A DNA stretch of 64,000 nucleotides from an uncultured Clostridia bacterium (GTDB lineage: Bacteria; Bacillota; Clostridia; Christensenellales; Borkfalkiaceae). Position numbers and translations under genes: made by a program. Below are positions 10,490 through 46,738 of this stretch, piece after piece; position 1 is the stretch's first letter, and each line of letters starts with the position of its first letter. The notes under the pieces were generated by a model. It was not told where the DNA came from and ran no database searches. It saw nothing but the letters and a program-made list of their open reading frames with translations. The stretch is from the NCBI GenBank assembly GCA_944367415.1, contig CALVWN010000035.1, positions 1,212 through 65,211 on the forward strand, in the 5' to 3' direction.

Positions 10490-13400
10490 ATGAAAAATCC
10501 TGCCCGCAAAACATGGTTTGCCGCGCTTGGGATGCTCATGCTTCTGCTGCTGTCCGTCTTTGCCGCGGCGTGCGCGTCCCAAACGTACACGCTGACGTTC
10601 GAGACGAACGGCGGCACGCCGGTCGCGTCCATCACGGCGGAAGCAGGCGCCGCCGTGACGCCGCCCGCCGATCCCGAAAAGGACGGGGCGGTCTTTGACG
10701 GCTGGTACACATCCGCCGATTTTTCCGGCGAGGCAGTGGAGATCCCCTCCGTCATGCCCGCGGAAAACATCACCTACTACGCAAAATTTACCGAGATGCA
10801 GCAGGCGACCCTCACGCTGGACGCGGGGCTCGGTTCGCTGGAGACGACTTCCTATCAGCTGGAGGTCGGCACGGACGTCTATGCGTTCGTCTCGTCCATC
10901 GTTCCCTCTGCGGCGCAGGGGCTGACGTTCGGCGGCTGGTTCGTCGGTGACAGCGAGACGCTGCTCGCCGTCGGAACGCGCCTTCCCGCCGCGGGGCTGT
11001 CGCTCACCGCACGCTATACGGTGACGTATTCCGTCGAAGTGTATCTCCAGGCGGAGCCGGAGAGCGATGATTACACGCTTGACGCGGATGCGGGCGTCGA
11101 GGGCGGCAGCGGATTTGTCGGCGAGACGGTGGATCTTTCCTCCACGCTCGGCTCGGTGACCGGCTATACGCTCAATGCGTCGCTCACGCAGCCCGTCACG
11201 CTCTCCGCAGATGGCGCAAATGTTTACAAGGCGTATTACGACCTGCGGGCTTACAATCTCATCTATTACAACAACGTGCCGGAGGGGGTGGACGCCGAAG
11301 TCGATCAGAGGATCCAGACGGTGTACTACAACACGGCGACGGAAGTGCTGACAAACGACTGGTCGATGGAGGGCTACCGCTTTGCGGGTTGGTCGCTCGG
11401 CGACCCCTCGGCGACCGCCAAGATCGACTATGAGGAGGGGGACACCATCACGGCGACGGGTTCCGTCATCCTCTACGCCTGCTGGAACCGCGGTCTGACC
11501 GACGCCAACGGCGGCAGCGATATCCTCTATGTCCTGCGCGAGAAAGCGGGAACCATTCTTCTGGAGCGCGAGCTTCTCGGAACGAAGGAGGGCAATTACG
11601 ACGCGGAAACGCGGGCGTTCTATTTCGGGGAGGGCAACGAGGACAACGCGCTTCCCCGCGGCCGCGTCTCCGCCGACGGAACGTCGTTTGTCTATTTCAA
11701 CGAACAATATGACGGCATCGAGTATGCGTTCTATGATATGGGAACGCAGGAGCTTGTTCCCGGCGTCAGCCTGACGATCGACGGCATTGACGGCGCGACC
11801 TATGTCAGCGGAGGCGATACGCTGACGGGCACCTATCTTCCGGAGGACGGGGAATATCTGTTCACTTCTTCCGACGGGACGACTTCGTTCTATTTCCGGT
11901 TTGCGACCTATCGGGAGACGGCCGGCGCAGAGCCGCAGGACGTCTTTGTCGTGCAGGACGGCTATGCGGACAGCTATGCGTACAATACCGGGAGCGGGAT
12001 CTCGCTCTTTCCCTTCCTCGTGCTTGACGGCTACGGAAACGCGACGTATATAGAGAGCTTTTCCACGATGCTGTCCGGAACGTACACGGTAGAGGGCGAT
12101 CATCTCATTCTTCTCTCGCTGGTCAACGAGTCGGAGACCATCGAGCGGCTCGTCCGGGTCGGCACGCTCTCCGGCGAAAGCTCGACTTCGGCGGTTTTCG
12201 TGTTCTCGGACGGCGTGCGCGGGAGCTATTCCTTCCGCTATGAAACAAGCGCATCCGGCGCCGGAATGATGACCGTCGAATTGGACGGCTTCGGAAGCGC
12301 CGAACTGTCCTTTGTCGCCGACAGCGGCGAAAAGGCGTCGGACAGCGGCGAATATACCTTCCTCGGCACCTATGTCCGGGATGAAAAGACGTACGGCACG
12401 GCGCGGATTCTGGTCGGCGACGACACGACGGTCACGACGTATACGATCACTTTCGAGTATGACGCATCCCTCGAGGCGCATACGGCGCTGCTTGTCGGCA
12501 ACGAGGCGGGCATCTACTCCGAGTACAATGCCGTGAGCGGATTCACCGCAAGTATGCTCATGTACGGCAACGGAGTCGCGGCGCTGTATTTTGCGATGCA
12601 GGACGGGGCGACGCAGCCGCTCATGGAGGGGAGATACCTGCCCCGCACCGGGGAAACCGACATCTATACCTTTGAAGCGACCTCCTATGCCGAAGGGTTC
12701 GAGGAGACGCTGCGCGAGGCATACGGCTCGTTTACCTTCCGCCTCTATGCGGGCAACGGCGTGTTTATCATGTCGGACGGCGCGGAAGGCACCTATTCCT
12801 TTGCGATGGGTTCAAATTCTCAGTGGACGATCACCTGCAACGGGTTCGGCAGCGCCACCGTCACGCAGAACGGCGCGGATGCGGGAACGATCTTCTATAC
12901 GCTCTTGGAAGGGTACGGAAACTATCATTTCATCCGCTTCGGCGTCAATTACGGCAGTTATATTCTGTACTATTATCTGCGAGTCGATCTGGATACGGTG
13001 CAGGCCGGCGTTGCCAATCAGGTCGAGGCATTCAGCAGTCTGATGGGCGTCTACGGCGATCTCGGAAACCGGATGGCGGATCATACCGAGGCGCTCATGC
13101 TCTATCCGGACGGAACGGCGATCATCCGGGTCTATACCGACCTCGAGACGGAGACGTATATCACCATCGAGGGAACGTATGCGAGCGTCGAAGAGCCGAG
13201 CGGGCTGTATCAGTTCAAGGCGGCAAGCACCCCCGCGGCGGAATATGCCGCCTATGCGGATTTCCTGTTCAGCGCAGGAACGCTGTCGGGCAGTTCCGTC
13301 TTCTGCTATTACCGCGAAGGGGAGGCTGCCGAGCTGACGCTCTACGGGGAGACGCTCGAATTGAGCGGCTACGGGATCGCCTCGTACGGGAATACCAATT

Positions 13401-16174: not shown

Positions 16175-16191
16175 TTTCACACAGATTTCAG

Positions 16192-16221
16192 AATGGGGTC
16201 GCCTGCGGGCGACCCCATTTT
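16192..16221 (+). terminator. Rho-independent terminator
   Basis: 12-bp stem AATGGGGTCGCC / GGCGACCCCATT, loop TGCG, short T tract. Confidence 0.8.
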
Positions 16222-16336
16222 GCATACTGTACGGACTTTTATATAATTTATTCCGATAAAACGACAGAACCGATAACTATAATTCATAATTATGCATAAT
16301 ATCCGCTATATTGATAGCAAAATTTGATCGATTGAT

Positions 16337-16366
16337 TTGACATCGGTGACAGATTTGTGATAAAAT
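16337..16366 (+). promoter_or_regulatory. candidate promoter (extended -10) of the 3277-aa gene
   Basis: TTGACA (16337-16342), 18 nt, TGATAAAAT (TAAAAT at 16361-16366). This leaves a leader of about 105 nt containing the hairpin GTTTCCG-GGCGGG-CGGAAAC. Confidence 0.5.
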
Positions 16367-16473
16367 AAGAACATGAAATGTTTCCGGGCGGGCGGAAACG
16401 ACCTTTGAACAGCGGCGCTGCCTGTGCGGTGCGGCTGTTTCGTGGAACATTGGAAAAATCATGGAGGTGTGCT

Positions 16474-19400
16474 ATGAGGCTTAAGAAGTGGCTGATCGGC
16501 GTTCTGACGGTCATCATGTCGCTGACGACGCTCTTTGCGATCGCGGCGTGCAAGGAAGATGAACCCATCGACGAAGAGCAGCCTTTTCAGGAAGGGCCTG
16601 AAGTGGGTGTCTATTATTATGACACCGGCCTGGAAGAGTATCAGATCGTTTTAAGCGGAAACAATCAGTTTACCTTCCTGGTCATGGGGGAGAACAAGAC
16701 AGGTACATACACTCTGACGGACACGACCCTTGTTCTTGATTTTGCGCGCGCAGAGGACGGGGAGGTGACGGCGACGCTGTCCGACGACGTTCTGTCGCTC
16801 ACCTGGCAGGATTCTGCGATGCGGTTCCTCAGGCAGATCAGCTACAGCGTCACGTTTGACGCGCAGGAGGGGAGCGCCGTCGGATCGGTCTCGGTCATCA
16901 ACGGCAAGACGATCTCCCGTCCGGACGATCCCGTGCGCGACGGGTACGTCTTTGTGGGCTGGTACACGGATACCGCGCACACGACTCCCTTCATGTTTGA
17001 CGCGCAGCCGGTCACGTCCAATCTCACGCTCTATGCCTATTGGCTGCAAAAGACGCCCGGTTCGAACGAGTATACGGTCGATTTCGACCTCGGCTATGAT
17101 GCCGAGGCGCCTGCCGCTATGCAGACGACGGCGGGCTGCCTTGTCAGCCTTCCCGCGCCCGAGCGCGAGGGGTATACCTTCCTCGGGTGGTATGTGAGTG
17201 CGTCCGATTCTGCCGAAAAGCTGACGTATGAATATACGGTCGGGACGAAACTCAATGAGAATACGACCTTGTATGCGCTTTGGGAGGAGGACGGTGACGA
17301 GCTCGCCGCGCCCGCAGTCAGCGTGACTGCGACGGGGGTGACGTGGAACGCCGTCAGCGGCAGCGCCATCTACTTTGTGACGATCACCGGCCCCGATCAG
17401 GAGACGCTCGTCGACAATGCGCGTGTGCAGACGACGTATTATGAATTCGATTTCACCGCGCAGGAAGCGGGCGAATACCTTGTATCCGTCAGCGCTTCTT
17501 CCAACCTCGCGGGTACGGGAACGCTCGCGACCGCCTCGCGGTACTATGTCAACCGCGCGCTCGCCCGCGTCTCCGTCTTTGATGTCGTCGAGCCGTCCGC
17601 GCTCATCTTCGAGGGCGTTCCCAACGCGGAGCGCTATTACCTCACGATTGACTGCGGCAACGATGCGCATACGCACGATATGGTCGCTCTCGGCAAGATG
17701 ACCAGCTATAACTTTGCAAACTGCCCGATGCAGGAGGGCGGCATCCGCTTCGTCGTGACGGCGGAGGCAGACGGATATGTCTCTTCCGTGTCCAAGGAAT
17801 TTGTCTATAACCGTGAACTTGCACAGGTCACGGGCCTTGTGTATGAGGCGGAGACGCAGACCTTCTATTGGGATGCGGTCGCCGATGCGATGGGGTACGT
17901 CGTCGCCGTCAACGGCACCACGGCGGAGATCGGAAACGTCATGAGCTACAGCGTCGACGCGTTTGCCGCGGGGGAGATCGTATTCAGCATCTATCCCGTC
18001 ACGAAGGGCTATAATTCGCCCGTCGCAAGCACCATGACGGTGACCAAGGCGGAGCCTGCAACGCCCGCAAACATTCATGTGAACGATGCGAACTGTATCG
18101 TCTGGGATGCCGTTGCCGGCGCGACGTCTTACACGCTTTCCATCAACGGAACGACCTATTCCGAGACGGAAAACTCCTTCGATCTTGCGCAGATCATCGG
18201 GGAGGGCGTCCTCGAGGGGACGACGTTCACGGTGTCCGTGCGCGCCAATTCGGACGCCGCAAGTTCGCTTTGGAGCAAAGAACAGACGCTGGAATACCTC
18301 GTCATGGGCGGTCAGCTCAAGTATTCCGCAAATGTGTTCTCCTGGAACGACGTCGTTGGCGCGGAGTATTATGATGTTCAGGTCAACGACGGCGACATCG
18401 TCACCGTGCGCGACGCGAACAGCGCCGTCGTCAGACTCACGCAGGCGGGCAACAACATTCTGCGCGTCCGTTTCGGAAACGCAAGCTATCTGTCCGACTG
18501 GAGGGAACTGACGGTCTTCGCCTACGAGATCGCCTTCGATTCCCGCGGCGGAACGGCGGTTCCCAGCGTCTATGTCGCCAACGGCGATGCGATCTCTTAT
18601 CCCGAAGATCCCGAGCGGGAGGACTACCGCTTCGACGGATGGTATACCGTGCCGGGCGGCGCGGAGGCAAACGGCGCACAGTACGGCGATCAGATCTTTG
18701 CGGAGGGCGCAAACCTCATTCTGTATGCAAACTGGGTCTGGATCCCTACGCCTTCCACGGTCACGCTGAATGCCCACTACGGCGCGCTGACGGAGGATGT
18801 CGTCGAAGTCCTCTACGGGATGGATTACACCCTTGAAGTGCCTGCCAACACGCAGGAGCGCGACGAGCGGTATGTGTTCAACGGCTGGTTCTCCGAACCC
18901 AACGGCAACGGCATCCGCTACACCGATATGAACGGACAGGGCGTCTCCGCATGGCCCACGAAGGGCGACACGACGCTGTATGCGTCCTGGCTCGAAGTAT
19001 TCTCGTTCACGCAGACGGTCGACGCGGTCGGCAACACCGTCTATGCGGTCGCAAAAGGCCCCGAGATCGGCCGTATGTCGAGCATCACCATCCCTGCGAC
19101 CTACAAGGGCGTACTTGTCGCCCGTATCTACAGCGGCGCCTTCGATGAATGTATCACGCTGACCGAGATCAATGTTCCCGACAGCATCGTCACCATCGGT
19201 TCCGTCTCGACGTCCGACGCAATGGGCGCATTCTCCGGCTGTATCAGCCTGATGAATGTCAACGTGTACGAAGCGGAGGGCGATCACGACGTCTACTATT
19301 GGTCGGAGGACGGCGTCCTCATCTATGACAATCCTCAGACACAGCTGACGCGTCTCGTCTACTATCCCGAAGCGCGCCGCGGTGCCTATCGCATTCCCGA

Positions 19401-22400
19401 CGGCGTGGAGGAGATCCCCATCCGTACCTTTGCGGAAATGGAGATCCCTTCCATCACCGTTCCCGCCAGCGTTCAGTACATCCGCAGCGCTGCATTCTTC
19501 GGCTGCACGAATCTGCGCGAAGTCATCTTCGAGAGCGGAGAGGGTGCATCCCTCACGATCGACGATCTTGCGTTCCAGAACTGCACGGCGCTGACATCGA
19601 TCAGCCTGCCCAAGCATCTCACGCAGATCACGGCGGACGAGGCGTTCCTCGGCTGCAATGCGCTCGTCAATATCTTTGTGGAAGAGGGGAACGCGGCATA
19701 TTCGTCGGTGGACGGATTGCTCTGCGATGCGTCCGGAACCAAAGTCATCTTCTGCCCGATGGGCAAGAGCGGCGTCTATAACATTCCGACGGGCATCCTC
19801 GAGATCGGCGAGGCGGCATTCGAAGGCCGCGACAAGCTCACGGAAGTCAATATCAACGCCTACGTCACGTCGATCGGTGTCAATGCGTTTGCCGACTGCG
19901 CAAACCTCTACCGCGTCACGTTTGCGACGGATGCGGCGGCGACCTTCGATATCACGATCGCAGATTACGCATTCTATAACTGCACCAAGCTGGATACGGT
20001 GACGTTCAGCGAGAACGTTGTCGGGATCGGCGCAAGCGCATTCGGTTATTGTGAGACGCTTCGGGAGCTCAATCTTCCCGGTTCGCTGAACTCGATCGGT
20101 GCGAATGCATTCCAGAGCTGCACCCACCTTACCTCCGTCGTCTTCAACGGCGGCGAGGGGACGCTCACCGTCGGCGACGCGGCATTCAGCGACTGCGTGT
20201 TACTGAGCACCGTTACGCTCTCTGCGAGCGTGACCTCCTTCGATGCGGTCAACGTGCTTGCGGGCTGCGACAACCTCGAGAGCATCGAGGTCGCGGACGC
20301 CAACCCGAACTATGCCGACATCGACGGCGTCCTCTACACGAAGGACATCAGCGAGATCCTCTACTATCCCAAGTTCGGAAGCGCGGAGGCGATCACGCTT
20401 CCCGATACGGTCAAGACGATCGGCGAGAGCGCGTTTGCAGGAAACGGCACGATCACGTCGCTCACCATCGGCGGCAATGTGACGCTGATCGAGGCAAATG
20501 CCTTCGACCGCTGCATCTCGCTCGTCACGGTCATCTTTGAAAACGACGGAACGGAGCCGCTCGTCCTCGGCGAGTATGCCTTTGCAAACTGCCCGCTGAT
20601 CGCAAGCGTTGTCCTTCCCGACAGACTGCAATCCATCAGCAACTATGCGTTCAACCTCAACGGTTCGCTCAAGGATGTCGACTTCGGCAATTCCATTCAG
20701 CAGATCGGCGAGTACGCATTCGCGGGCACGGCGCTCGAGGAGATCGTCATTCCCGATACCGTCACGTCGCTCGGCGTCGGCGCCTTTGACAGCTGCGCTT
20801 CGCTCGTGCGCGTGGAATTCCCCGCATCCATGACGACGATCGGCGGTTCGATCTTCAGCAACTGCCCGAAACTCTCCGAAGTCATCATCCCCGAGGGGGT
20901 CACCTCCATCGGCGAGAGAGCATTCGAAGGCGCGGCATCTCTTTCCGAGATCGCACTGCCTTCCACCCTTGTTACGATCGGCGAATATGCGTTTGCGGAC
21001 TGTACGTCGCTGACTTCGATCGAGATCCCCGCCTCCGTCGCAACGATCGGTCGGTATGCATTCGACGGTTGCTCGGCACTTGCGTCCGTCACGTTTGAAG
21101 CCGGCACGCAGCCGCTCACCATCGACGACTACGCCTTCCAGTATTGCACGAGCATCACTTCGATCGAATTCCCGACGAGGCTGCAGCAGCTCGGTACAAC
21201 GAGCGGTTACCTCTTCCGCTACGGATCGCTTGAAATCGTCACCTTTGCGGAGGGTGAGAGTCAGCTGGAAGCGATCAGCGACTTTGCTTTCGCAACGGCC
21301 AATCTCATTTCGATCGAGCTTCCCGAAGGGCTGAAGACCATCGGCCGCAGAGCGTTCTATAACAGCGGCTCGGGCGCGCAGATGGAGAGCATCGTCATTC
21401 CTTCCACGGTGACGCTGATCGAAGAGGGCGCGTTCTACTGTCAGTCCGCGCTCCAATCCATCACCTTTGCGAGCGTCGGCAAGCCGATGGAGGAGCTCGA
21501 GTCTCTGACGATCGAGGAGAGTGTGTTCACCGGCGTGACCGTCGAGTCGATCACCCTTCCCAAGAACCTCGCCTCCATCACCGCGCCGATGTTCTTTGCT
21601 GCGGCAAACGGCGGCGCAAATTCGTATGACTGGCGCGTCGAACTGCGTGAGATCGTTCTCGAGGAGGGAAATGAGAACTTCGTTCTGGAGGGCAATATCC
21701 TCTATGAAAAGAACATTTCCGGCGAGACGGAGACCTGGAGCATCGCGCTCGTTCCCACCGGTTATACCGGCGCGCTGACCGTCTCCAACCGCGTGACCTC
21801 CATTCCGGAGTATGCGTTCATGCTGTCCCGCGCCGAGAGCATCACGCTTCCCGACACGATCACGTCCATCGGGAACTATGCGTTCAACTTCGCTTCCTTC
21901 TCGAGCGTGACCATCCCCGGCAGCGTGACGACCATCGGAAGGGCGGCATTCGGCTATGAGTCCCGGCCCAGCGCTTCGAGCGGTCATTCGGATTACGTCA
22001 GCCCGCTGAAGGAAGTCATCTTCGCAGAGGGCACGGCGGAACTGAAGATCACCGGCAACAACGCGTTCAAGAATACGTCCATTACGTCCATTGAGCTTCC
22101 CGAGCGCCTGACGTCCATTTCCGGAATGTATGCCTTCGAGGCAACGGCGCTCACCTCCGTGACCATCCCTGCAAGCCTTGCGACGATCGGAAACTATGCA
22201 TTCAGGAATTGCGAAGCGCTGACGCAGGTGACCTTTGCGCCCGGCTGCTCGCTGAAGACGATCGGCACCTCGCTGTTCCAGAATTCCGGGCTGCAGTCCA
22301 TCGAAATTCCCGCAAGCGTCACAACGATCAACAACAATGCATTCAGAGACTGTAAGGAGCTGACGTCCGTCACCTTTGAGGCGGGCGGCACGGCAGAACT

Positions 22401-26307: not shown

Positions 26308-26341
26308 CGGCATACGCTCGCTTCACTGCAAAATAGGGCAT

Positions 26342-26369
26342 CAAGTCATCGGAAAATTCCGATGACTTG
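26342..26369 (+). terminator. hairpin, possible terminator or attenuator after the giant gene
   Basis: Stem CAAGTCATCGG / CCGATGACTTG, loop AAAATT. Only a weak T-rich tail follows. Confidence 0.45.
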
Positions 26370-26409
26370 TACCTATTTATGAAGAAATTGTGAAAAGATA
26401 TTTCAAACA

Positions 26410-26439
26410 TTGGACATATTGTGAAAAGTATGGTATCAT
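26410..26439 (+). promoter_or_regulatory. candidate promoter of the MoxR/VWA operon
   Basis: TTGGAC (26410-26415), 18 nt, TGGTATCAT (TATCAT at 26434-26439). It is flanked by the direct repeat ATTGTGAAAAG at 26387 and 26418. Confidence 0.45.
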
Positions 26440-27527: not shown

Positions 27528-27564
27528 TGCAGATAAAAATTATTTGAAAAAGGAAATAACAGAC

Positions 27565-37165: not shown

Positions 37166-37181
37166 CCTCTGACGGGCAGTG

Positions 37182-38507
37182 TCATTGTTTTTTGTGTTCT
37201 TCTTTCCAGGCTTTGATCTGTTCGAGCCGCGCTTTGAATTTGCTCTCCAGGCCTTCCTCGGTGGGCGTGTAGTATTCCCGCCCGACGAGGTTGTCCGGAA
37301 GGCACTGCATGGTGGTCAGTTTGTCGTCGGCGTCATGCGCATATTCATACCCTTTGCCGTAGGAAAGCTCCTTCATGAGCTTGGTCGGCGCATTGCGGAT
37401 GACGAGCGGAACAGGCTCCGCGAGCATGGTGAGCGCATCCTTTTTGGCGCGTTCATAGGCGACGTAGAGAGCGTTGGATTTCGGGGCGAGCGAGAGATAG
37501 ACGACCGCCTGCGTGAGGTGGACGCTGCATTCCGGCATCCCGATGAGGCGGCACGCCTCGAATGCCGAAACGCACAGCTCGAGCGCGCGCGGGTCGGCGA
37601 GACCGACGTCCTCGCTCGCGAACCTCGTCACGCGGCGGGCGATATAGATGGGATCCTCTCCCGCTTCCAGCATCCGCGCCAGCCAATAGACGGCGGCGTT
37701 CGGGTCGGAGTTGCGCATGGATTTATGCAGCGCGGAGATGAGATTGTAGTGTTCCTCACCTTTTTTATCGTACAAAAGCGATTTCTTTGAGGTGATCTGC
37801 TCGATCGTCTCGGCGGTGACGACGGTCTTTTCGCCCTCGAGCGTGCCGTTCAGCACCGCCATTTCGAGCGTGGAGAGCGCGCTGCGCGCGTCGCCGTTGG
37901 CAAAGTTCGCGATCGCCCGGAGCAGTTCTTCCGAGATCTCCACCTCCTGATTGCCGAATCCGCGCGGATCTTTGAGCGCGTGATGCAGCAGCTCGCACAG
38001 CTCCTCCGGGGAAAGCTCGTGCAGCACGAACACCTTGCAGCGGGAGAGGAGCGCGCCGTTGATCTCAAAAGAGGGATTTTCCGTCGTGGCGCCGATGAGG
38101 ATGATGCTTCCCTTTTCGACATAGGGGAGAAAGGCGTCCTGCTGCGCCTTGTTGAAGCGGTGGATCTCGTCCACAAAGAGGATAGTCTTTCCGCCGAAGC
38201 GCCTGTTCTTTTCCGCCTGTTCCATGACCTGTTTGATCTCTTTGATCCCGCTCGTCACGGCGGAGAAGTCGATGAACGTCGCCTTGGTGCGTTGGGCAAT
38301 GATGCGCGCGAGCGTGGTCTTTCCCACGCCGGGCGGCCCCCAGAAGATCATCGAGCCGATCTGGTCGCTTTCGATGAGGCGGCGCAAGATCTTCCCTTCG
38401 CCCAAGAGGTGCTTTTGTCCGCAGTATTCTTCCAGCGTGCGCGGCCGGATGCGTGCCGCAAGCGGCTGGCTTGTCCGATCATCAAAGAGTGTTCCCTGTT
38501 CCAGCAT
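37182..38507 (-). CDS. rarA: replication-associated recombination protein A (RarA/MgsA AAA+ ATPase)
   Basis: ATG at 38507 (MLEQGTLFDD...). Contains PLAARIRPRTLEEYCGQKHLLG, FWGPPGVGKTTLA, LFVDEIHRFNKAQQD and ATTENPSFE. The ORF-track N-terminal extension to 38780 was rejected. Confidence 0.95.
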   Translation of the reverse strand: MLEQGTLFDDRTSQPLAARIRPRTLEEYCGQKHLLGEGKILRRLIESDQIGSMIFWGPPGVGKTTLARIIAQRTKATFIDFSAVTSGIKEIKQVMEQAEKNRRFGGKTILFVDEIHRFNKAQQDAFLPYVEKGSIILIGATTENPSFEINGALLSRCKVFVLHELSPEELCELLHHALKDPRGFGNQEVEISEELLRAIANFANGDARSALSTLEMAVLNGTLEGEKTVVTAETIEQITSKKSLLYDKKGEEHYNLISALHKSMRNSDPNAAVYWLARMLEAGEDPIYIARRVTRFASEDVGLADPRALELCVSAFEACRLIGMPECSVHLTQAVVYLSLAPKSNALYVAYERAKKDALTMLAEPVPLVIRNAPTKLMKELSYGKGYEYAHDADDKLTTMQCLPDNLVGREYYTPTEEGLESKFKARLEQIKAWKEEHKKQ

Positions 38508-38651
38508 ATCTGTTTCCGTCTGTGAAAAGATTTGTTTGAAGATATTATATGCCTTTCCGGGCAGAATGTCAATGTGATGGCGAAAAATGGGTGCGGGGCC
38601 GCGAAAAAATCCTTCAGGGATTGCGGCGGGATCGGAACGGGGGAAAACGTT

Positions 38652-41267
38652 ATGAACGAAAGAAAGAGGATGCAATTTGTACGTCTGTGCCTTGCCATCC
38701 TCTTTTTTGTTTGCCTTGCGGCAGGTTTGCTCTCTGCCTGCAAGTCCTCCTGCACCGTCAGCTATCTTGCAGGCGACCATGCCGCCGCGGATGCCGTTCT
38801 TCCGCAGCCTGCGGAGTATGAACAGGGGCAGACGATCGTGCTCGCCCCGGCGCCCTCCGCCGCAGAGGGCTGGGAGTTCGCCGCGTGGTCGGACGGTGCG
38901 CGGCAGTTCGGCGCAGGGGAGACGTATGTCGTCGAAGGCAGCGTCACGTTTACGGCGCTCTGGAGGGCGTGCGAGCCGTCGCAGCCCGATCCGGAACCCG
39001 AGCCCGACCCCGATCCGGAACCCGAACCGGAGCCGGAACCCGAACCGGAACCCGAACCGACGGTCTTTTATACCGTGACTTTCTCGCTCGGGAAATACGC
39101 CGACCCGTCCGAACAGACGCCGGCCGCCGTCCGTGTTGCAGCGGGAGAGGCGGTCGCGCTTCCCGTTGTCGCCGCGGCGCGCGGCTTTGTGTTTGACGGC
39201 TGGTTTTCAGGCGGCGAGAAAATCGAAGCGCCCTTCGTTCCCGCGGCGGATACGCTGCTCGAAGCACGGTTTACCGCCGTGCGCTATACGGTGACGTTTG
39301 AACACCTTGAGGGCGCATACAATCCCAATACGATCACGGAGTACACCGTTCTCGACGCATCTGTCGAACTGCTTGCCGCGCAGAAGCGCGGCTATCGCTT
39401 TGTCGGCTGGCTGGATCTTGCGACGGGAAGCGTCGTCACATTTCTCGATCCCACCCGTGCGGAGGACGTCCGACTGTATGCGCTCTTTACGCCGCTGCGC
39501 TATTCGATCACCTACCATCTGGACGGCGGAACGGGCGATCCCGCCAATCCTGCGGAGTACACGATCGAGAGTGGAGACATCACGATCCTGCCGCCCGAGA
39601 AACTCGGATATGACTTTCTCGGATGGACGTATGCGGGGCAGACGCAGCCACAGCTGCAAATCACCATCCCGCACGGATCGACGGGCGACATCGAACTGAC
39701 GGCGCACTGGCGGCTGCATCTCTATTCCGTGACCGTGGACGGCTTCCTCGCCGCACAGCTGACGATGGGGCAGTCGTTTGCGCTTCCGATGCCGACCCGC
39801 CGTCCCGACATGACCTTCATGGGTTGGATGCAGGGGGAGGCACTGCGCTATACGCCGCAGGACAACGTGCTCGTCATGCAGACGGAGGACGTTGCACTCG
39901 TGACGCGCTGGGCGATGCACGATGCGATCGCGGACGGGGAGGAAGCGCTCGCCGTGTTCGCCGATCCGGACGCGGCGCGCATGAAACTCGCCGCAGACGT
40001 CACGCTCGGAGCGGGCGTGACACTTTCGCGCGCCTTTTTACTGGAACTCGGCGGACACACGCTCACCTTTGTCACGCGCGACACGCCCGCGCTGCGGGTG
40101 AATGTGCCTTCCGCCGAGGTCTGCATCCAAGGCGGCACGCTGCAGGTGCAGGCGACGGATGTGCGTCAACCCGCCATTCTGGCGGAGAGCAGCCTTGCCA
40201 TGCAGGCGGCGGTGCTCCATTCGGAGGGCGCGGGGATCCTGCTCGTGCGCGGATCGCTCTCTCTGTCTGCCTGCGAGATCACGGCGGACGGCGAATATGC
40301 GGTCGCGGCGGACAGAACGCTCGGAAGCAGGGATGGCTGCACCGTCGCCGTTTCGGGCGGAACGCTTCGGGCGAACGGGGCGGAGAGCGCCGCATTGCTC
40401 TTTCACGGAAAGGGCACGCTCTCCCTCTCCGGAGCGGTGCTTTCGGGCGGAAGACAGGGACTTGTGGTGCGCCGCGGCGAGGCGACGATCTCCGGCTGTA
40501 CGATCGCTTCGCGCGCCGAAGGGGGTGCGGAGCCTGTGCCGTGGGCGGAGGGTGCGCGTGTCGCGATGGCGGCGCTTGTCGCGGGCGATCCGGACGGCGA
40601 CGGCACGGATGCCAACGTGACGATCGCCGGCACGCAGGTGACGTTCGGCGGCAGCGTGCGGGAGGGGTGCATCCTCCTCGTCGGCGAATCCGACCTTGCG
40701 GGCGTTGCGCGCCTTCTGTATGACTGCTCGGATCTGCCCATGCGCGAGATCGTGCAGCAGGGCGGCGTCAGCGTGCGGGGAGCGGGCTATCTGCTCGCCT
40801 CGCACCGCGAGGAATATCACGCCGCGCGGGCGGTCACCTGCACGTCGGACGGCTGGGACGCGTATTACTATTGTCCGCGCTGCGAGGGATATTTCGATCT
40901 GGAGGGAAATGCCGTCGTGTGGGAGCAGCTCCTGCATCCCAAGCCGGCGGACGGTCACTTCTTTACCGTCACATACGATATGCGCTCGTGCGCGCTCACT
41001 TACGGCTGTAGCCGCGGCGACACCGAGCAGCTCATGCTTTATCTGGAATTTACTGCCGACCGTGGGGAGGTTCACGTTGCATCCGACGCATTCTCCTATG
41101 TCGGCGGCGAGATCTTTGTCGACCTCACCCGCGTCAGCGTGACGGGGCTTGCGGCAGACGAGTGGGTGGTCGGCTACTTTGTGGGGACGCTGTACTGTCC
41201 GCCCGATGCGACCGTCAGCGTCATGCAGGTCAATGTTATCCATGCCATTGTCGGGAAGGTCACATGA
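38652..41267 (+). CDS. surface lipoprotein (871 aa): Listeria-Bacteroides repeats, Pro-Glu/Asp linker, beta-helix-like region, Cys-motif C-terminal module
   Basis: ATG at 38652. The signal peptide ends GLLSAC. Repeats include EGWEFAAWSDG..., RGFVFDGWF, RGYRFVGWLD and LGYDFLGWTY. The GGTL/GSLSL/GGTLRA-type repeats (about 40.0-40.7 kb) suggest a parallel beta-helix. Confidence 0.8.
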   Translation: MNERKRMQFVRLCLAILFFVCLAAGLLSACKSSCTVSYLAGDHAAADAVLPQPAEYEQGQTIVLAPAPSAAEGWEFAAWSDGARQFGAGETYVVEGSVTFTALWRACEPSQPDPEPEPDPDPEPEPEPEPEPEPEPTVFYTVTFSLGKYADPSEQTPAAVRVAAGEAVALPVVAAARGFVFDGWFSGGEKIEAPFVPAADTLLEARFTAVRYTVTFEHLEGAYNPNTITEYTVLDASVELLAAQKRGYRFVGWLDLATGSVVTFLDPTRAEDVRLYALFTPLRYSITYHLDGGTGDPANPAEYTIESGDITILPPEKLGYDFLGWTYAGQTQPQLQITIPHGSTGDIELTAHWRLHLYSVTVDGFLAAQLTMGQSFALPMPTRRPDMTFMGWMQGEALRYTPQDNVLVMQTEDVALVTRWAMHDAIADGEEALAVFADPDAARMKLAADVTLGAGVTLSRAFLLELGGHTLTFVTRDTPALRVNVPSAEVCIQGGTLQVQATDVRQPAILAESSLAMQAAVLHSEGAGILLVRGSLSLSACEITADGEYAVAADRTLGSRDGCTVAVSGGTLRANGAESAALLFHGKGTLSLSGAVLSGGRQGLVVRRGEATISGCTIASRAEGGAEPVPWAEGARVAMAALVAGDPDGDGTDANVTIAGTQVTFGGSVREGCILLVGESDLAGVARLLYDCSDLPMREIVQQGGVSVRGAGYLLASHREEYHAARAVTCTSDGWDAYYYCPRCEGYFDLEGNAVVWEQLLHPKPADGHFFTVTYDMRSCALTYGCSRGDTEQLMLYLEFTADRGEVHVASDAFSYVGGEIFVDLTRVSVTGLAADEWVVGYFVGTLYCPPDATVSVMQVNVIHAIVGKVT
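38973..39059 (+). repeat. low-complexity (Pro-Glu / Pro-Asp)n linker coding repeat
   Basis: It encodes EPSQPDPEPEPDPDPEPEPEPEPEPEPEP. The DNA is an imperfect CCGGAACCCGAA-type hexanucleotide array. Confidence 0.85.
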
Positions 41268-41296
41268 ATCGAAACAATGATAAGGAGAAAATACAG

Positions 41297-44200
41297 ATGA
41301 AACAAGGATGGAAAGTTGCGGGCGCGATGCTCATGGTGCTCTGCGTACTGCTTGGGCTTGTCGCCTGCACCGAGCCGACCGAACCGACGCAGTCGCCCGA
41401 GCCGGAACAGCCGCGGCCGGTCGTGTACACCGTGGATTTTTCGCTCGGCGCATACGCGGCAGAGGACGCGCAGTGCCCCGTGCAGGTGACTGCGGAGGAG
41501 GGCGAAGAGATAATTCTGCCTGCTGCCGTTTCGGCGCAGGAGGGGTGGATCTTCGTCGGTTGGGAGGATGAAGGGCAGGTTTATGCCGCGGAGACAGAGT
41601 ATTCTGTCACGCATAATACTATGTTTACTGCAAAATGGGAGGCGTTGCTCGTCGAATATACGGCGACGTTCGTGCTCGGCGAGCACGCGGCGGGCGCGTC
41701 GCCCGCACCTGTCGTCGCGGAGGAACATACGCAGATCACCCTGCCCGCCGTCGAAGCGGAGGAGGGTTGGACGTTTGTCGGCTGGTCGGACGGGGAGCAG
41801 ATATATCCCGCCGGCGGGCAGGTGACGCTCACGCAGGACGTCACCTTTACGGCTGTCTGGGAGAAGCTGCCCGTCTTTTACACCGTGACGTTTGTCCTCG
41901 GCGAACACGCCGCGAGCGCGTCGCCCGCGCCCGTCGTTGCGGAGGAGAATTCGCAGATCGCGCTGCCCGCCGTCGAAGCGGAGGCGGGCTGGGCATTTGT
42001 CGGCTGGTCGGACGGGGAGCAGACGTATGCCGCCGATGAACAGTATTGTGTCACGCAGAATATTTCATTTACGGCGATTTGGGAGAAGCTGCCCGTCTTT
42101 TATACGGCGACGTTCGTGCTTGGCGAGCATGCGGCGGGCGCGTCGCCCGCGCCCATCGTTGCGGAGGAGAATTCGCAGATCGCGCTGCCCGCCGTCGAAG
42201 CGGAGGCGGGCTGGACGTTCGTCGGCTGGTCGGACGGGGAGAGGACATACGCTGCAGGCGGGCAGGTGACGCTTGTGCAGGACGTCACCTTTACGGCGAT
42301 TTGGGAGAAACTGCCCGTCTACTACACTGTGACGTTTGTTCTCGGCGAACACGCGGCGGGTGCGTCGCCCGCGCCCATCGTCGCGGAGGAGAATACGCAG
42401 ATCACGCTGCCCGACATTGAAGCGAAGGCGGGCTGGTCGTTCGTCGGCTGGTCGGACGGCGCGCAGACATACGCTGCAGGCGGGCAGGTGACGCTTGCGC
42501 AGGACGTCACCTTTACGGCGGTCTGGGAGAAGATCATGATCGCCGTGTACTTTGCCGCGAACGGCGGTTCGGGAGACATGGCGGCGCAGACCATCGGATA
42601 CGGCGATGCGCTCGTATTGCCCGCGAATGGTTTTGCGGCGCCCGCGGGCATGGAATTTGCAGGTTGGTCGTTCGACCGCAGCGTGCTGCTCGGCGGGGAG
42701 GTCGGCGCGGAGCGCTATCTTGCATATGTCGAGGAAGGCGTTCTCACCGTCTATGCGTTGTGGAAGCCGCTGCCGCCCGTCATCTTTACGGTGACCTTTG
42801 ACATCGGCGCGTATGCGGCGGAAGGTTGCGTCGCTCCGCCCGCGCAGGCGGTGGAGGAAGGGAGCAAGATCGTTCTGCCCGAGGCGCCCGCCGCAAAGGA
42901 GGGTTGGGAGTTTTTCGGATGGGCGAGCGACGGCTTCCGCTATCTTCCGGGGGACAGTTACCGCGTGACGGCGGATACGCGCTTTTCTGCGCTCTGGATC
43001 GTCGTGCTGCCCGAGCGGTATGCGGTATCCTATGACTGCGGGGTGGAGAGCGGCTTCGGCATCGTGGGCGAGACGCCCGCCACGGTGACATATGAGGAGG
43101 GCGAATCGTTTGCGCTCCCGCTCTCGCCGTGGAAGCGCGCGGGATATGATTTTGTCGGATGGAAACTCCTGCACCGGGTCGAGCAGGCGGGCGAGACGGT
43201 GTGGGAGAATATGCCCGGCCCCGTTCTTTTGCCCGGCGCGATCGTGATGATGCCGTCGGAGGACATCCGCGTCACGGCGGTCTGGAAACAGGCGGCGCTC
43301 GTCGTCACGGTCGTCTTTGACGCAAACGGCGGCACGGGAGAGATGGCGGATGAAAGTTTCGACTACGGCGGCGACTATGCGCCGCCCGCCTGCACACTGA
43401 CTGCGCCCGACGGCAAGCAGTTTGCGGGATGGTCATTGGACGGCGTGACGTCCCTCGGCGAGGCGGTCTCGCGCGAGGAATATGCCGCGTATCTGACGCA
43501 GATGACGCTCACGCTGCACGCTCTCTGGGAGGACGTTCCCGTCTATGCGGACATTCAGACCATCGTCGGGACATGGGAGAACGGCATCTCCTTTGTCGTC
43601 ACCGACGCCGTACTGACGGAAGAGGAGAGTGTCGGCACGCTCATCTGGGACAACGGCATGATGGGCATCCGTCAGACGTCGGACGGCGCATTTTACGGCA
43701 CGCACGACGGCGTGAACTACCGGCTCTCGCTGTCGGACGGGATGCTTGTCGTCACATACGGCGGATCCGCCATGATCTTCGAGACGCATACGCCCCTTGC
43801 GGAGGATGTGCGTCTCTACGGGAAATGGCGGTCGGATGGCGGCGAGAATTGGCTGATCGCCGCGACGGGCGCGCGCTTCGGGAGCGATCTCAGAGAGGCC
43901 TCCGTGCTCGTGGTCGGCGGCTATCTCCTGCTGCGCGAAGAGGACGGCTGCCGATACCTTCTCCGAAGGGAGGGCGATACGCTCGTCGGCGTGTGCCGGG
44001 CGCCCGGACAGGCGGATGAAGCCGTCACGTTTACGGCGGGAACGTTCTTCACGCTTTCCGTCGGCGATGCACTCAACCAGTTTGTGGAAGCGGGCAGCGC
44101 GCCTGATGAAGCGCGGCTCCTGCCGCCCGTCGCCCCCGAAGGGCAGGCGTTCGGCGGATGGGTGATCGCGGGCACGCAGCAGCGCTTTTCGCCCTCCGAT

Positions 44201-46738
44201 GTGCTGACGGAGGATGTCTGCATCGAGGCGTCCTTCCTTCCGGAGGGGCAGATCGTCGTGACATTCCGGAACGGCGAGGAGGTATTTCTGACCGTTACGG
44301 CAACGCAGGGCGGACAGATCGCCTGCCCGCAGGAGATCCCCATCAGCGCAGAGGGTAAGACCTTCCGCTATTGGGCGGACGAAGGGGGCGAATACGACTT
44401 TGCGTCTCCCGTTCTGCAGCCGCTTACGCTGCACGCCGTGTTTGCCTGGAAGGTGACCTTCGAGACGGACGCCGGCGCGGTCGAGCCGCTCTGGGTGGAG
44501 GAATGGACGGCGGAGGGCATTGCCCTTCCCTCGGGCGAAGGGCTGGAAAAGGAGGGCTATGCGTTTGCAGGCTGGCAGTTCGGCGGCGTCACCTACACCG
44601 ACCGCTACGCTCCCGCGCCCGGAGAACAGCCCCGAAACGCGGTGTTTGTTGCCGTCTGGGAGCAGAAAGATCTTTGGCGGATCACCTTCACGGATGCGGA
44701 GGGGTATGATTACGGGAGCCGTCTTACGGAAGGGATCGTGACGGACGCGCCGACGCCGACGGCGGAGGGTCTGACCTTTGCGGGGTGGACGCTTGCGGAC
44801 GGCACGCCCGTCGACCTGGAAAACGATGTCTTCACAGAGGACACGACGCTGTACGCGCGGTTCCTCGCGCCGTCCTCCGCCTTCGTCGGCGTCTGGTCGG
44901 ACGCGGCGCACGAGGTTGCGATCGCCCTCGTGGCGGGAGTGTCCGGAGAGGAGGTGCTCTGCGCCGTCATCGACGGAAGGACGGTCGGGATCGAACTGTC
45001 GCCCTCCGACGCATCCGAGCGCGCGCTGTACTCTGCTGCGGCTGCCGTCATGTATGAGGAAGTGCCGTTCGGCACGCTCGCGCGCACGCGCACGGGCATC
45101 CGCGTGACGCTTGCGGGCGGGGAGACGTTCGCCGTCGCGGGGAACGCACAGCCTGTCAAGTCGCTCACGGTCGACGACCTCGTCGGCAAGACGTATGCGG
45201 GAGGAGCGGGTTCGCTCTCCGTTTCGGAGTATGATGTCACGATCGGCGGCGAGAGCGGCTGGTTCATACAATATATTGTCGGCAATTATTTCCTGATGAT
45301 GACGTACGGCACGGACGCAATGCGTACCTGCATCCTGCAGCTGGATGGCAAGACGCTCGCGGGCTACGACGAACACGGCAGCGCGGTCGTCTACACCGAG
45401 CAGGAGGAGAGCGGCGTGTCGATCACCTATGAGGACGGCATCCTGACCTGCGGCAACACGTCGATGTACTTCATGGTCTACGCCTCCGACGGCAGCGAAG
45501 TCAGGACGGATGCATCGGCGTTCTCCTTCTCCGACGGCGTCTTTTCCATCGATCTCTCCCGCGTGCACGTCGCGGGTCTTGACGAACATGAGCGGCTGAT
45601 CGGCTTTACCGCGTACGATCTGAACGGAGAACTGTTCTTCGGCGCGGACGATGTGATCGAGATCGGCGGTTTTCAGGAGCTTATCGCAGAGATCGAGCTG
45701 ACCTCCTTCTCCATCGGAAGAGACGGCAGCGCCGACGGCGTCTGGGAGAGCGGAGCGTGGTACACGCCCGCGTGGACGAGCATCCTCGCGCGGGGCGACA
45801 TTGTTCGGATCGGCGGCACGCTCACGAGCGACGGCGCGGAGAACTGGCACGCGGCGCAGGCACTGCTCTATTCCGATACCGTGAACGGCGCCTTCCGCCC
45901 GGACTGCTATGTGACGGATACGGGGATCGGGAGAAGTTTTCAGATCGCCAAGGAGTGCGTCATCGACTGGACGGGATTGGCGTCGGCACTGAAGAACTGT
46001 TCGTACGACATTCTCTACGACTGGTCGGATCCGGACGCCATCAAGATCTCGATCTTCCTCTCCGCAAAGGATGCGGCGTATTTCGGCATCTCCACCTACA
46101 CGGTACGGGCGCTGTCGGGAGCGGCGCTTGCGGACTGGTACCGCATCGGCATCTCCTTTGAAAGCGCATTTTTCCGCGCGGAGCAGGTGGTGCGCGGCTG
46201 CAGTGCGGGTCACGCCGACGGATGGTATTGCCCTGTCTGTCTGAAGATCAATGCGGAAAAGCTCGAAGGGGCGCTGCAGACGCCCGCATCGCCCGCACAG
46301 ACCGTTTCCCTCGCGCCCGGCAGCGTGATGAAGGCGACGCTCTCTGGTTCCGATGCGAGCGCCTTCTGGGAGATCGTCGTTCCGGGCGCGGACGGCGCAA
46401 GTTATGTCGATCTGCAGCTCGCCAATTTCCTCGAGACGGGCGAGATCTGGAGCAATGCGTGGGGCGGCGGCGCGGACGGTTTTGAAAGCTGCGCCGAGCG
46501 CGGGCTCATGCAGTTCGGCGTGCATCCCGCGGCAGGCGGGTGGACGGGCACCTATACGGCGTACGCCTTGCGGATCGGCGATATTTTCGTGCTGTATGTG
46601 TCGTTCACGCCCGAGGGCGCGCAGGAGAGCGCCTATGCGGCGATGCTCTGGATGAAGGGCCTCCCGGACAGCGAGGTGACCTTCCGGATCGTCAATGCGG
46701 CGGGAACGCCGAACGTGCAGACCGGATACATCGGATAA
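41297..46738 (+). CDS. giant surface lipoprotein (1813 aa) with tandemly duplicated Listeria-Bacteroides repeat domains
   Basis: I chose the ATG at 41297 (AAGGAG 8 nt upstream). An ATG at 41264 overlapping the previous stop is an alternative start. The signal peptide ends LLGLVAC. At least 12 EGW.F.GW-type repeats are visible. The C-terminal modules are shared with the 38652 gene. Stop is TAA. Confidence 0.85.
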   Translation: MKQGWKVAGAMLMVLCVLLGLVACTEPTEPTQSPEPEQPRPVVYTVDFSLGAYAAEDAQCPVQVTAEEGEEIILPAAVSAQEGWIFVGWEDEGQVYAAETEYSVTHNTMFTAKWEALLVEYTATFVLGEHAAGASPAPVVAEEHTQITLPAVEAEEGWTFVGWSDGEQIYPAGGQVTLTQDVTFTAVWEKLPVFYTVTFVLGEHAASASPAPVVAEENSQIALPAVEAEAGWAFVGWSDGEQTYAADEQYCVTQNISFTAIWEKLPVFYTATFVLGEHAAGASPAPIVAEENSQIALPAVEAEAGWTFVGWSDGERTYAAGGQVTLVQDVTFTAIWEKLPVYYTVTFVLGEHAAGASPAPIVAEENTQITLPDIEAKAGWSFVGWSDGAQTYAAGGQVTLAQDVTFTAVWEKIMIAVYFAANGGSGDMAAQTIGYGDALVLPANGFAAPAGMEFAGWSFDRSVLLGGEVGAERYLAYVEEGVLTVYALWKPLPPVIFTVTFDIGAYAAEGCVAPPAQAVEEGSKIVLPEAPAAKEGWEFFGWASDGFRYLPGDSYRVTADTRFSALWIVVLPERYAVSYDCGVESGFGIVGETPATVTYEEGESFALPLSPWKRAGYDFVGWKLLHRVEQAGETVWENMPGPVLLPGAIVMMPSEDIRVTAVWKQAALVVTVVFDANGGTGEMADESFDYGGDYAPPACTLTAPDGKQFAGWSLDGVTSLGEAVSREEYAAYLTQMTLTLHALWEDVPVYADIQTIVGTWENGISFVVTDAVLTEEESVGTLIWDNGMMGIRQTSDGAFYGTHDGVNYRLSLSDGMLVVTYGGSAMIFETHTPLAEDVRLYGKWRSDGGENWLIAATGARFGSDLREASVLVVGGYLLLREEDGCRYLLRREGDTLVGVCRAPGQADEAVTFTAGTFFTLSVGDALNQFVEAGSAPDEARLLPPVAPEGQAFGGWVIAGTQQRFSPSDVLTEDVCIEASFLPEGQIVVTFRNGEEVFLTVTATQGGQIACPQEIPISAEGKTFRYWADEGGEYDFASPVLQPLTLHAVFAWKVTFETDAGAVEPLWVEEWTAEGIALPSGEGLEKEGYAFAGWQFGGVTYTDRYAPAPGEQPRNAVFVAVWEQKDLWRITFTDAEGYDYGSRLTEGIVTDAPTPTAEGLTFAGWTLADGTPVDLENDVFTEDTTLYARFLAPSSAFVGVWSDAAHEVAIALVAGVSGEEVLCAVIDGRTVGIELSPSDASERALYSAAAAVMYEEVPFGTLARTRTGIRVTLAGGETFAVAGNAQPVKSLTVDDLVGKTYAGGAGSLSVSEYDVTIGGESGWFIQYIVGNYFLMMTYGTDAMRTCILQLDGKTLAGYDEHGSAVVYTEQEESGVSITYEDGILTCGNTSMYFMVYASDGSEVRTDASAFSFSDGVFSIDLSRVHVAGLDEHERLIGFTAYDLNGELFFGADDVIEIGGFQELIAEIELTSFSIGRDGSADGVWESGAWYTPAWTSILARGDIVRIGGTLTSDGAENWHAAQALLYSDTVNGAFRPDCYVTDTGIGRSFQIAKECVIDWTGLASALKNCSYDILYDWSDPDAIKISIFLSAKDAAYFGISTYTVRALSGAALADWYRIGISFESAFFRAEQVVRGCSAGHADGWYCPVCLKINAEKLEGALQTPASPAQTVSLAPGSVMKATLSGSDASAFWEIVVPGADGASYVDLQLANFLETGEIWSNAWGGGADGFESCAERGLMQFGVHPAAGGWTGTYTAYALRIGDIFVLYVSFTPEGAQESAYAAMLWMKGLPDSEVTFRIVNAAGTPNVQTGYIG
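41651..42538 (+). repeat. four in-frame tandem 222-bp repeats (74-aa units)
   Basis: Units start at 41651, 41873, 42095 and 42317. Each encodes V[FY]YT.TFVLGEHAA.ASPAP.VAEE..QI.LP..EA.AGW.FVGWSDG..TYAA....... .FTA.WEK. Neighbouring units differ at about 14 of 74 residues by eye. Confidence 0.9.

Follow-up and report, generated by a model that had tools for sequence, protein, structure and literature searches.

A Bat-like MoxR/DUF58/VWA cluster genomically coupled to large leucine-rich repeat lipoproteins in gut Clostridia

The genome of an uncultured Clostridia bacterium carries, within the 64,000-nt stretch of contig CALVWN010000035.1 that was analysed here (the window), a 36-kb locus at 10490-46738 in which genes for a MoxR ATPase, a DUF58 protein and two membrane proteins with von Willebrand factor A (VWA) domains lie among genes for large predicted lipoproteins. 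The cassette and its leucine-rich repeat (LRR) lipoproteins are genomically coupled: across relatives of this organism they are conserved in gene content, in gene order and in the integrity of their motifs. From this recurrent adjacency, the LRR lipoproteins are probably partners or clients of the cassette. At about even odds (a probability near 0.5), the whole would be a Bat-like, clade-specific transmembrane platform that tethers, assembles or remodels these lipoproteins. The genes, here called G1 to G10, all lie on the plus strand; rarA alone is on the minus strand. The first-pass annotation of this DNA had placed every plus-strand gene of the locus either among the lipoproteins or in a MoxR/DUF58/BatA/VWA set, with rarA as the sole interruption. 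Pfam bears out the set (AAA_3, DUF58, BatA with VWA_2, and two VWA domains), and the division is right for all genes except G3, which falls in neither class and turns out to be a constant part of the cluster.

We compared the locus with those of 80 species-representative genomes, in which G7 is 38-60% identical to that of the window, and with seven metagenome loci (G7 up to 66%), searching the window proteins against the six-frame open reading frames (ORFs) of all loci. The 80 genomes are the best of 291 with a G7 relative, one genome having been scanned per species. In this genome scan, two peptide patterns from the G7 tail served to find the loci, so that both the count of 291 and the invariance of the tail in L008-L087 are biased by ascertainment. 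G7 homologues are abundant in uncultured Clostridia, with 612 proteins at E <= 1e-10 among 8000 candidates scored. The carriers are Clostridia from animal and human gut and include Ca. Scatosoma, Ca. Gallimonas, 'Subdoligranulum sp. CAG:314' and Anaerocaecibacter muris CLA-AA-M11 (locus L023), a cultured and publicly available member of the Pumilibacteraceae (GTDB family CAG-552).

The order G2-G3-G4-G5-G6-G7-G8 on a single strand recurs in essentially every locus with sufficient flank. G8 lies immediately 3' of G7 in all 85 loci that have sequence there (minimum gap -4 bp), a large LRR ORF ends just 5' of G3 in 56 of 60, MoxR has a G3 homologue ahead of it wherever the locus extends far enough upstream, and MoxR and DUF58 are present wherever the upstream flank is long enough, L082 excepted. 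The junctions are tight, with median gaps across loci of 46 bp between G3 and G4, -1 bp between G4 and G5, 13 bp between G6 and G7 and 18 bp between G7 and G8; G5 and G6 overlap by 4 bp in 77 of 77 loci. Measured against the proteins of the window, median identity comes to 35% for G3, 69% for G5, 40% for G6, 44% for G7 and 39% for G8. In six metagenome contexts, where G7 identity ranges from 66% to 43%, a giant protein with Flg_new and LRR_5 repeats (2888-3689 aa) and a protein of about 350 aa are followed, in unchanged order and on one strand, by MoxR, DUF58, BatA, VWA and a protein of about 920 aa. Genes beyond the cluster vary from locus to locus, those downstream including AraC/PocR, MarR, SBP, flavodoxin and subtilase genes. 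Because G8 is in place at every locus and the LRR gene at nearly all, and because the genes beyond the cluster differ, we take the adjacency to be selected rather than coincidental; chance adjacency of cassette and LRR lipoproteins is ruled out by these synteny statistics. Co-localisation of such cassettes with LRR lipoproteins, which the first-pass annotation had put forward for comparative analysis, thus holds within this clade, where homologous cassettes do not usually lack LRR neighbours. It does not extend to all five lipoproteins of the locus: G2 and G8 are constant, but the position of G1 varies and G9 and G10 are found in close relatives only.

The constant parts of the cluster are G2, whose size is variable (1024-3689 aa), and G3, G4, G5, G6, G7 and G8. 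Another large lipoprotein on the same strand follows G8 on its 3' side in 54 of 78 loci, mostly one of the H9 type described below and otherwise one of the G1 type. The 36-kb locus is accordingly made up of a conserved core of about 20 kb and lineage-specific surface-protein cargo. Three metagenome-assembled genomes hold two diverged copies of the cluster (L014/L015, L049/L051 and L060/L086, with G7 41-56% identical), each copy with its own G8; these duplicates are either old paralogues or the product of mixed bins.

In the window, the genes from G3 to G8 follow one another with stop-to-start gaps of 16, -4, -4, 12 and 10 bp. The start of G5 overlaps the stop of G4 by 4 bp, and G8 starts 10 bp past the stop codon of G7 (11 bases from the last base of G7) with a ribosome-binding site of its own, GAGGAGG. 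Between G2 and this run of genes, at 26331-26378 on the plus strand, a hairpin followed by a U-rich stretch resembles a terminator; its folding energy is -26.8 kcal/mol (z = -8.3), and none of 200 shuffled sequences was as stable. Promoter-like sites, both of them matches to consensus only, lie on the plus strand before G2 (16337-16366) and before G3 (26411-26439), the latter reading TGGACA, a 17-nt spacer and the extended -10 element TG-TATCAT, with AGGAGG downstream. Within G3-G8 of the window, a promoter-like site was found solely ahead of G3. From the hairpin and the promoter-like sites, G2 is probably a transcript of its own and G3-G8 probably a single operon.

The ATPase of the system is G4 (27544-28671; 375 aa), the second gene of this operon after G3. 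Pfam identifies it as a MoxR protein (AAA_3, 3e-62; AAA_lid_2, 2e-16), its Walker A (GVPGVGKT) and Walker B (ILADE) motifs are both intact, and the closest solved structure is 2r44 (E 4e-72). A 27-bp Ala/Glu-rich duplication is present in the part of the gene encoding its C-terminal tail (28561-28617). [quoted passage not shown] No transmembrane (TM) segment was found in G4, which is therefore predicted to be cytoplasmic; the same is predicted for G5, in which none was found either.

The two membrane proteins of the cassette share a common layout: after a short acidic N-terminus, a loop rich in K/R joins TM1 to TM2, and a very large domain then leads to a last TM segment at the C-terminus. G6 (29564-31510; 648 aa) combines an N-terminal BatA region (3e-08) with VWA_2 (4.5e-07) and is predicted to have its N-terminus outside, TM1, the K/R-rich loop, TM2, an outward domain of about 545 aa that contains the VWA, and TM3. 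Its orthologues keep three TM segments in 79 of 82 cases and 8-9 K/R in the loop; in the MIDAS, D97 is retained in 79 of the 82, S99 in 81, and the third position is Ser in 55. G7 (31523-34279; 918 aa; VWA_2 2e-23, VWA 3e-18) is larger. After a double TM like that of BatA it carries two VWA domains, both seen in its AlphaFold2 model (pLDDT 81); it also has a GATase1-like domain and beta-sandwiches, and it ends in a TM segment and a cytoplasmic tail. The VWA fold resembles those of BatB (3ibs) and of the B. fragilis structure 4jdu, with a TM-score of 0.72, and also those of extracellular VWA proteins. The MIDAS motifs of VWA1 and VWA2 are complete and invariant in 85 of 85 sequences. The cytoplasmic tail, RKFKFKWPHEIIRD, is near-invariant, and invariant in alignment A1, which was gathered independently of the tail patterns. 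Since the positive-inside rule places the K/R-rich loop in the cytoplasm, and since the layout matches that of Borrelia BB0173, the large domains of G6 and G7 with their MIDAS-bearing VWA domains are predicted to face outward.

G3 (26457-27527; 356 aa) is a 3-TM protein and a constant subunit specific to the cluster, belonging neither to the lipoproteins nor to the MoxR/DUF58/BatA/VWA set. Its AlphaFold2 model (pLDDT 78.5), hydropathy and charge bias suggest that the N-terminus is inside and that TM1 and TM2 are followed by a helical hairpin of some 70 aa in the cytoplasm, then by TM3, a Flg_new domain that faces outward, an acidic, disordered linker (residues 260-310) and a C-terminal helical hairpin. 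The cytoplasmic hairpin, FRP..ARRLDxLGLEER..T..EL...A.RQREDA, is the best-conserved part of a protein that otherwise evolves fast, and all 66 orthologues keep D85, E91, R92, T95 and Q110. The Pfam match to Flg_new_2 is weak (1e-4, under the Pfam cut-off), and a profile search upheld the Flg_new identity. Run against 1.84 billion representatives, that search returned a uniform full-length family of 330-376 aa in a list swamped by multi-repeat Flg_new proteins. No whole-chain fold match for G3 was found in the PDB, where the best hit was a domain of Listeria lmo0835 (E 0.29), and NCBIfam has no specific family for G3, G5 or G6.

Five proteins of the locus, G1, G2, G8, G9 and G10, are predicted lipoproteins with a lipobox ending in Cys (AAAC, IAAC, LAAC, LSAC and LVAC, respectively). 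Their signal peptides end FAAAC, AIAAC, ALAAC, LSAC and LVAC, exactly as the first-pass annotation had given them. That annotation had called all five giant, a word too strong for G8 (941 aa) and G9 (871 aa), which are merely large. The five are built from LRR_5 and Listeria-Bacteroides (Flg_new) repeats. Pfam finds LRR_5 in G1 (74 bits, 1e-20), G2 (1320 bits) and G8 (579 bits, 8e-177) against a cut-off of 27.7 bits, and Flg_new in G1, G2, G9 and G10. They are strongly acidic, with D+E against K+R residues of 246/76 in G1, 380/156 in G2, 116/51 in G8 and 246/87 in G10. Also as annotated, no C-terminal LPXTG occurs in the lipoproteins of the locus, where the motif check met a single LPRTG internal to G1 at residue 717; Pfam found no SLH or cell-wall-binding repeats in the locus proteins; and the locus contains no sortase, secretion ATPase or regulator.

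G2 (16474-26307; 3277 aa) is composed of three Flg_new repeats, FN3-like modules and 22 LRR_5 stretches, and its orthologues stand directly 5' of the G3 homologue in L001-L007. When the database was searched with its N-terminal 700 aa, it yielded fragments of at most about 1200 aa. One of the candidates, P0176, was rejected as a G2 orthologue and is a paralogue in an unrelated context. G2-like proteins begin either with a lipobox or with a TM anchor that is not cleaved, the latter in some of the fragments P0179, P0180, P0181, P0184, P0186 and P0188. Right after the lipobox or anchor comes a conserved GPE(T/S)GVYYYD module, a candidate membrane-proximal docking domain.

In G8 (34290-37115), the lipobox is followed by an FN3-like domain and six LRR_5 stretches, and a Flg_new domain closes the C-terminus. 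Its relatives at the other loci are 874-1025 aa long and score 451-989 bits against it; with this length range, the median identity of 39% and the same layout of lipobox, FN3-like domain, LRR_5 and Flg_new, they are by sequence true orthologues and not LRR look-alikes. A strict lipobox pattern matches 75 of the 84 sequences screened; most of the others have a relaxed lipobox, and two are mis-started fragments of other ORFs. With an identity near that of G6 and G7, a uniform length and a lipobox that is nearly always present, G8 behaves as a subunit and not as a fast-evolving adhesin. Direct scans of the L002 and L023 orthologues gave the same Pfam architecture, with LRR_5 at 1e-181 and 1e-167. 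Precomputed Pfam results had listed no domain for the G8 orthologues in L002, L004, L005 and L007, a false negative on direct scan.

The remaining lipoproteins make up the variable part of the locus. G1 (10490-16174; 1894 aa) has two N-terminal Flg_new repeats, seven beta-rich modules of about 100 aa, each with DG[FY]GxA, and LRR_5 at residues 1357-1464. G1-like matches occur in nine loci, among them L008, L047, L048, L050, L067, L080, L081 and L083, and a protein of G1 architecture (two Flg_new, then LRR_5) lies directly 3' of G8 in L028. No G1-like gene is found 5' of G2 in L090 and L091 (P0183, P0178), and so the place of G1 upstream of G2 is not conserved; G1 is a recurrent accessory member of variable position. 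Downstream of G8, the rarA/mgsA gene (37182-38507, minus strand; 441 aa; Pfam MgsA_C 1e-66) is found in this place only in the close relatives L008, L010 and L042; rarA is not part of the system, and the site after G8 is a lineage-specific insertion point. In the divergent intergenic region between rarA and G9, a perfect sigma-70 consensus (TTGACA, 17 nt, TATAAT; 12/12) stands upstream of rarA at 38544-38572 on the minus strand.

G9 (38652-41267) has three Flg_new repeats, a PEPEPE linker and an unassigned C-terminal part, with homologues beside the cluster only in L008, L011 and L042. An 18-bp repeat array at 38985-39058 encodes the PEPEPE linker. The stop of G9 and the start of G10 overlap by 4 bp (ATGA, 41264-41267), and the two genes are probably translationally coupled. 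G10 (41264-46738; 1824 aa) has nine stretches of Flg_new, a repeat that it shares with G9; a tandem array at 41665-42532, built of 3.9 copies of a 222-bp (74-aa) unit with 83% matches, encodes Flg_new repeats and is a recent expansion in which repeat number is still evolving. Only in the closest relatives, L008, L010, L011 and L042, is G8 followed by rarA with G9, and by G10-like proteins. In most relatives a different lipoprotein family, which we call H9, comes directly after G8 (L005:15949-19116, L007, L013, L015 and about 30 more); its members have about 1050-1130 aa, N-terminal Big_3 domains and a large alpha-helical region. A hidden Markov model search found no H9 homologue anywhere in the 64-kb window. 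The G9-G10 region has a G+C content of 0.61-0.645 (38000-48000) against 0.54-0.57 in the cassette, a contrast from which the two may be blocks of differing history. The window as a whole has about 59% G+C, and its many long antisense ORFs are spurious products of that composition. The locus is flanked by housekeeping genes (amylase, FeoB, HMGL-like, YitT, MetA and RNase R).

From these parts we infer, in the following working model, which proteins touch, which way control runs and what part adhesion plays. The core would be the giant LRR lipoprotein G2 and the tight operon G3-G8, with a variable tail of large lipoproteins that are of the G1 type, of the H9 Big_3 type in relatives, or G9 and G10 here. 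G6 and G7 would form a Bat-like platform in the cytoplasmic membrane with their MIDAS VWA domains turned outward, where the MIDAS sites may bind acidic side chains of G2, of G8 and of the outward part of G3 to give a defined surface complex. On the inner side, a MoxR hexamer with DUF58 as adaptor would engage the near-invariant elements there (the hairpin of G3, the BatA-type loops and the tail of G7), and ATP hydrolysis would then assemble, activate or remodel the complex, a form of inside-out control over adhesin display. The model lends itself to pairwise hypotheses, of G6 and G7 with G2, G8 and G3, and of DUF58 with the G3 hairpin or the G7 tail. A bolder version, which we hold to be doubtful, is an integrin-like machine in which MoxR and DUF58 switch the outward MIDAS sites through the cytoplasmic tails and so control the assembly or adhesive state of the giant LRR lipoproteins on the surface of these abundant and barely cultured gut Clostridia; were it so, clients could for the first time be named for a Bat-type MoxR system. 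The suggestion of a dedicated maturation, tethering or display machine had already been made from the window alone. The adjacency on which it was built is conserved; the function is still a proposal, and the constant subunit G3 had been missed.

Several observations weigh against a platform dedicated to the LRR lipoproteins. The loci all come from a single orthologous family within one gut Clostridia clade, and the synteny could partly reflect inheritance rather than selection. The pattern scan, too, is biased by ascertainment. Four loci (L017, L024, L043 and L085) have no LRR gene 5' of G3; small unrelated genes precede G3 at the first three, and a 1260-aa Big_2 protein does so at L085. L082 (CALVLN01, contig 2; 6804-9985) keeps G2, G3, G6, G7 and G8 in order without MoxR and DUF58 in place, its G3 homologue directly preceding the BatA-type gene at a G3-G6 spacing of only about 120 bp, from which the outer parts may be able to work without the ATPase. 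The third MIDAS position of G6 is Asn in the window, and G2 is apparently transcribed separately. To our knowledge, moreover, the route by which a cytoplasmic AAA+ protein would transfer work across the membrane is not known for any Bat system.

L082 and the signals around G2, with its own promoter-like site and terminator-like hairpin, would also suit a cassette that is a general Bat-type module for envelope stress or integrity, as in Bacteroides, Riemerella, Francisella and Rhizobium, with the LRR lipoproteins as ordinary surface proteins co-regulated with it and the cassette acting on other targets. Carrier genomes contain many other LRR_5 and Flg_new genes, and classical Bat/MRP-MoxR operons give stress, aerotolerance and envelope phenotypes without an LRR partner, as far as the available portions of PMC11834572 and PMC5700661 go. 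We nevertheless consider this reading unlikely: G8 comes next after G7 at all 85 loci, frequently with an overlap, and its rate of evolution is subunit-like, close to that of G6 and G7; each paralogous cluster copy keeps its G8; G3 occurs in the cluster context only and uses the Flg_new vocabulary; and the TPR, SH3 and BatD partners are absent, as if replaced. The conserved cytoplasmic motifs of G3 and G7 and the predicted cytoplasmic location of MoxR and DUF58 would also fit signalling in the opposite direction, where LRR/Flg_new and VWA ectodomains would sense a host or matrix ligand and signal through G3, G6 and G7 to MoxR-DUF58 acting on a cytoplasmic target. LRR and VWA domains do bind ligands, an example being Borrelia BB0172, a VWA protein that binds integrin alpha3beta1 (PMC5700661). 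Such an outside-in receptor seems to us distinctly improbable, as no kinase, cyclase, DNA-binding output domain or regulator is present in or beside the cluster in the loci inspected, and the size range of G2 together with expanding repeats fits a stalk or adhesin better.

Two further readings draw on resemblances of single proteins. MoxR and vWA pairs are the core of the conflict or defence systems of Kaur et al. 2020 (PMC7159879), and G4 has a weak Pfam match to bpMoxR (5.7e-09). Its AAA_3 match (3e-62) is far above this, DUF58 and BatA are not named in PMC7159879, and among the locus proteins Pfam finds no VMAP, iSTAND, FtsH or beta-propeller third component and no effector; PADLOC was negative save for a marginal DolB-like AAA match. 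With PADLOC negative and the ternary components absent, a defence system is largely ruled out, and we regard it as very improbable. Scarcely credible is an ATP-driven surface-motility 'leg' apparatus like that of Mycoplasma mobile Gli349, to which the pairing of a giant surface LRR protein with an ATPase and an NCBIfam glide_Gli349 match on G8 might point. At 125 bits against a cut-off of 1750 the match reflects shared LRR_5-type repeats, other gliding components are lacking, and MoxR is not a rotary or F1-like motor.

The platform that tethers, assembles or remodels LRR lipoproteins, which we favour, would matter in several ways. Conserved lipoproteins translationally coupled to the cassette offer concrete candidate clients for an orphan and widespread MoxR system. 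The cluster is present in at least 80 species-level genomes, with the pattern scan, biased as it is, suggesting up to about 291, and one of its carriers, Anaerocaecibacter muris, can be grown. With a core of about 20 kb and a full locus of 36 kb, it is probably a major determinant of its carriers' cell surface and of their attachment to host or particles. Full-text literature searches, with most subscription journals outside their scope, found no description of a Bat-type cassette associated with LRR lipoproteins, in agreement with the first-pass annotation, which knew of none.

The cluster can be set beside several known systems. With the MoxR-vWA ternary conflict systems (Kaur, Burroughs, Iyer, Aravind 2020) it has a MoxR and vWA core in common, DUF58 and BatA standing here instead of the third component and effectors. 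G1, G2 and G8 share their LRR_5 and Flg_new repeats with BspA-type proteins (Tannerella BspA, Streptococcus HupY/LrrG, Mycoplasma mobile Gli349) and InlB-B-repeat proteins, but anchoring is by lipobox here and not by sortase. The likeness is one of repeats only, since the NCBIfam matches of G8 to HupY (264 against 1250 bits) and Gli349 (125 against 1750 bits) are far under cut-off. We know of no named BspA-type protein that has been linked to a MoxR cassette.

A parallel may be found in the MoxR-VWA pairs with defined clients (RavA-ViaA, CbbQ-CbbO, NorQ-NorD, CoxD-CoxE, BchI-BchD), in which an AAA+ MoxR protein works with a MIDAS VWA adaptor encoded beside the client. CbbQ-CbbO and NorQ-NorD are pairs with clients of their own. 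Because such pairs sit beside their clients, the neighbouring lipoproteins suggest themselves as clients of the present cassette. In RavA-ViaA, the MoxR ATPase acts through its VWA/MIDAS adaptor on a dedicated client complex (PMC3893208), and M. tuberculosis MoxR1 is reported to be required for export of RipA (PMC4810496). The clients of the named pairs, however, are enzymes of the cytoplasm or membrane whose maturation requires a metal or cofactor, whereas the candidate clients here are extracytoplasmic repeat proteins and additional VWA domains lie outside the membrane.

In Borrelia burgdorferi, the bb0170-bb0176 genes are a Bat-like cluster tied to adhesion, and the BatA-like inner-membrane protein BB0173 has the same layout as G6, with three TM segments, BatA-N and an outward VWA-MIDAS domain; the periplasmic location of its VWA domain was shown experimentally (PMC5700661). 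There the VWA protein itself is the reported adhesin, unlike here, where separate LRR lipoproteins lie in the operon.

Known since 1999, operons of the Bat type (MoxR/DUF58/VWA) are spread over many phyla. The BatI (aerotolerance) operon of Bacteroides fragilis and the homologous operons of Riemerella, Porphyromonas, Leptospira and Francisella, whose MoxR is of the MRP subfamily, have the order MoxR, DUF58, BatA-N double-TM VWA and second membrane VWA in common with our cluster. BatC, BatD and BatE (TPR, SH3, BatD) are peculiar to them, the cluster described here having G3 and LRR_5/Flg_new lipoproteins instead, and no TPR, SH3 or BatD match was found by Pfam in the locus proteins or in the Pfam-labelled neighbours of six related loci. 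G7, with two VWA domains, a GATase1-like domain and beta-sandwiches, is far bigger than a BatB-type protein. The Clostridia lineage of our organism is taken as single-membrane, and the outward face would be the cell surface here and not a periplasm. Classical Bat operons of Bacteroides, Borrelia and Riemerella carry TPR/SH3/BatD partners, and the available portions of PMC5700661 and PMC11834572 mention no LRR partner; only stress and virulence phenotypes, and no substrate or client, are known for such operons (PMC5700661, PMC11834572). Four features of these operons recur in our cluster (an early MoxR, DUF58 next, a BatA-N VWA protein and a BatB-like second VWA protein) and the TPR/SH3/BatD feature does not; for this reason we file the cluster apart, as Bat-like and not as a classical Bat operon. 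Should the integrin-like version of the model prove true, the products of classical Bat operons, too, may be transmembrane platforms on which envelope proteins are assembled, and not 'aerotolerance' factors.

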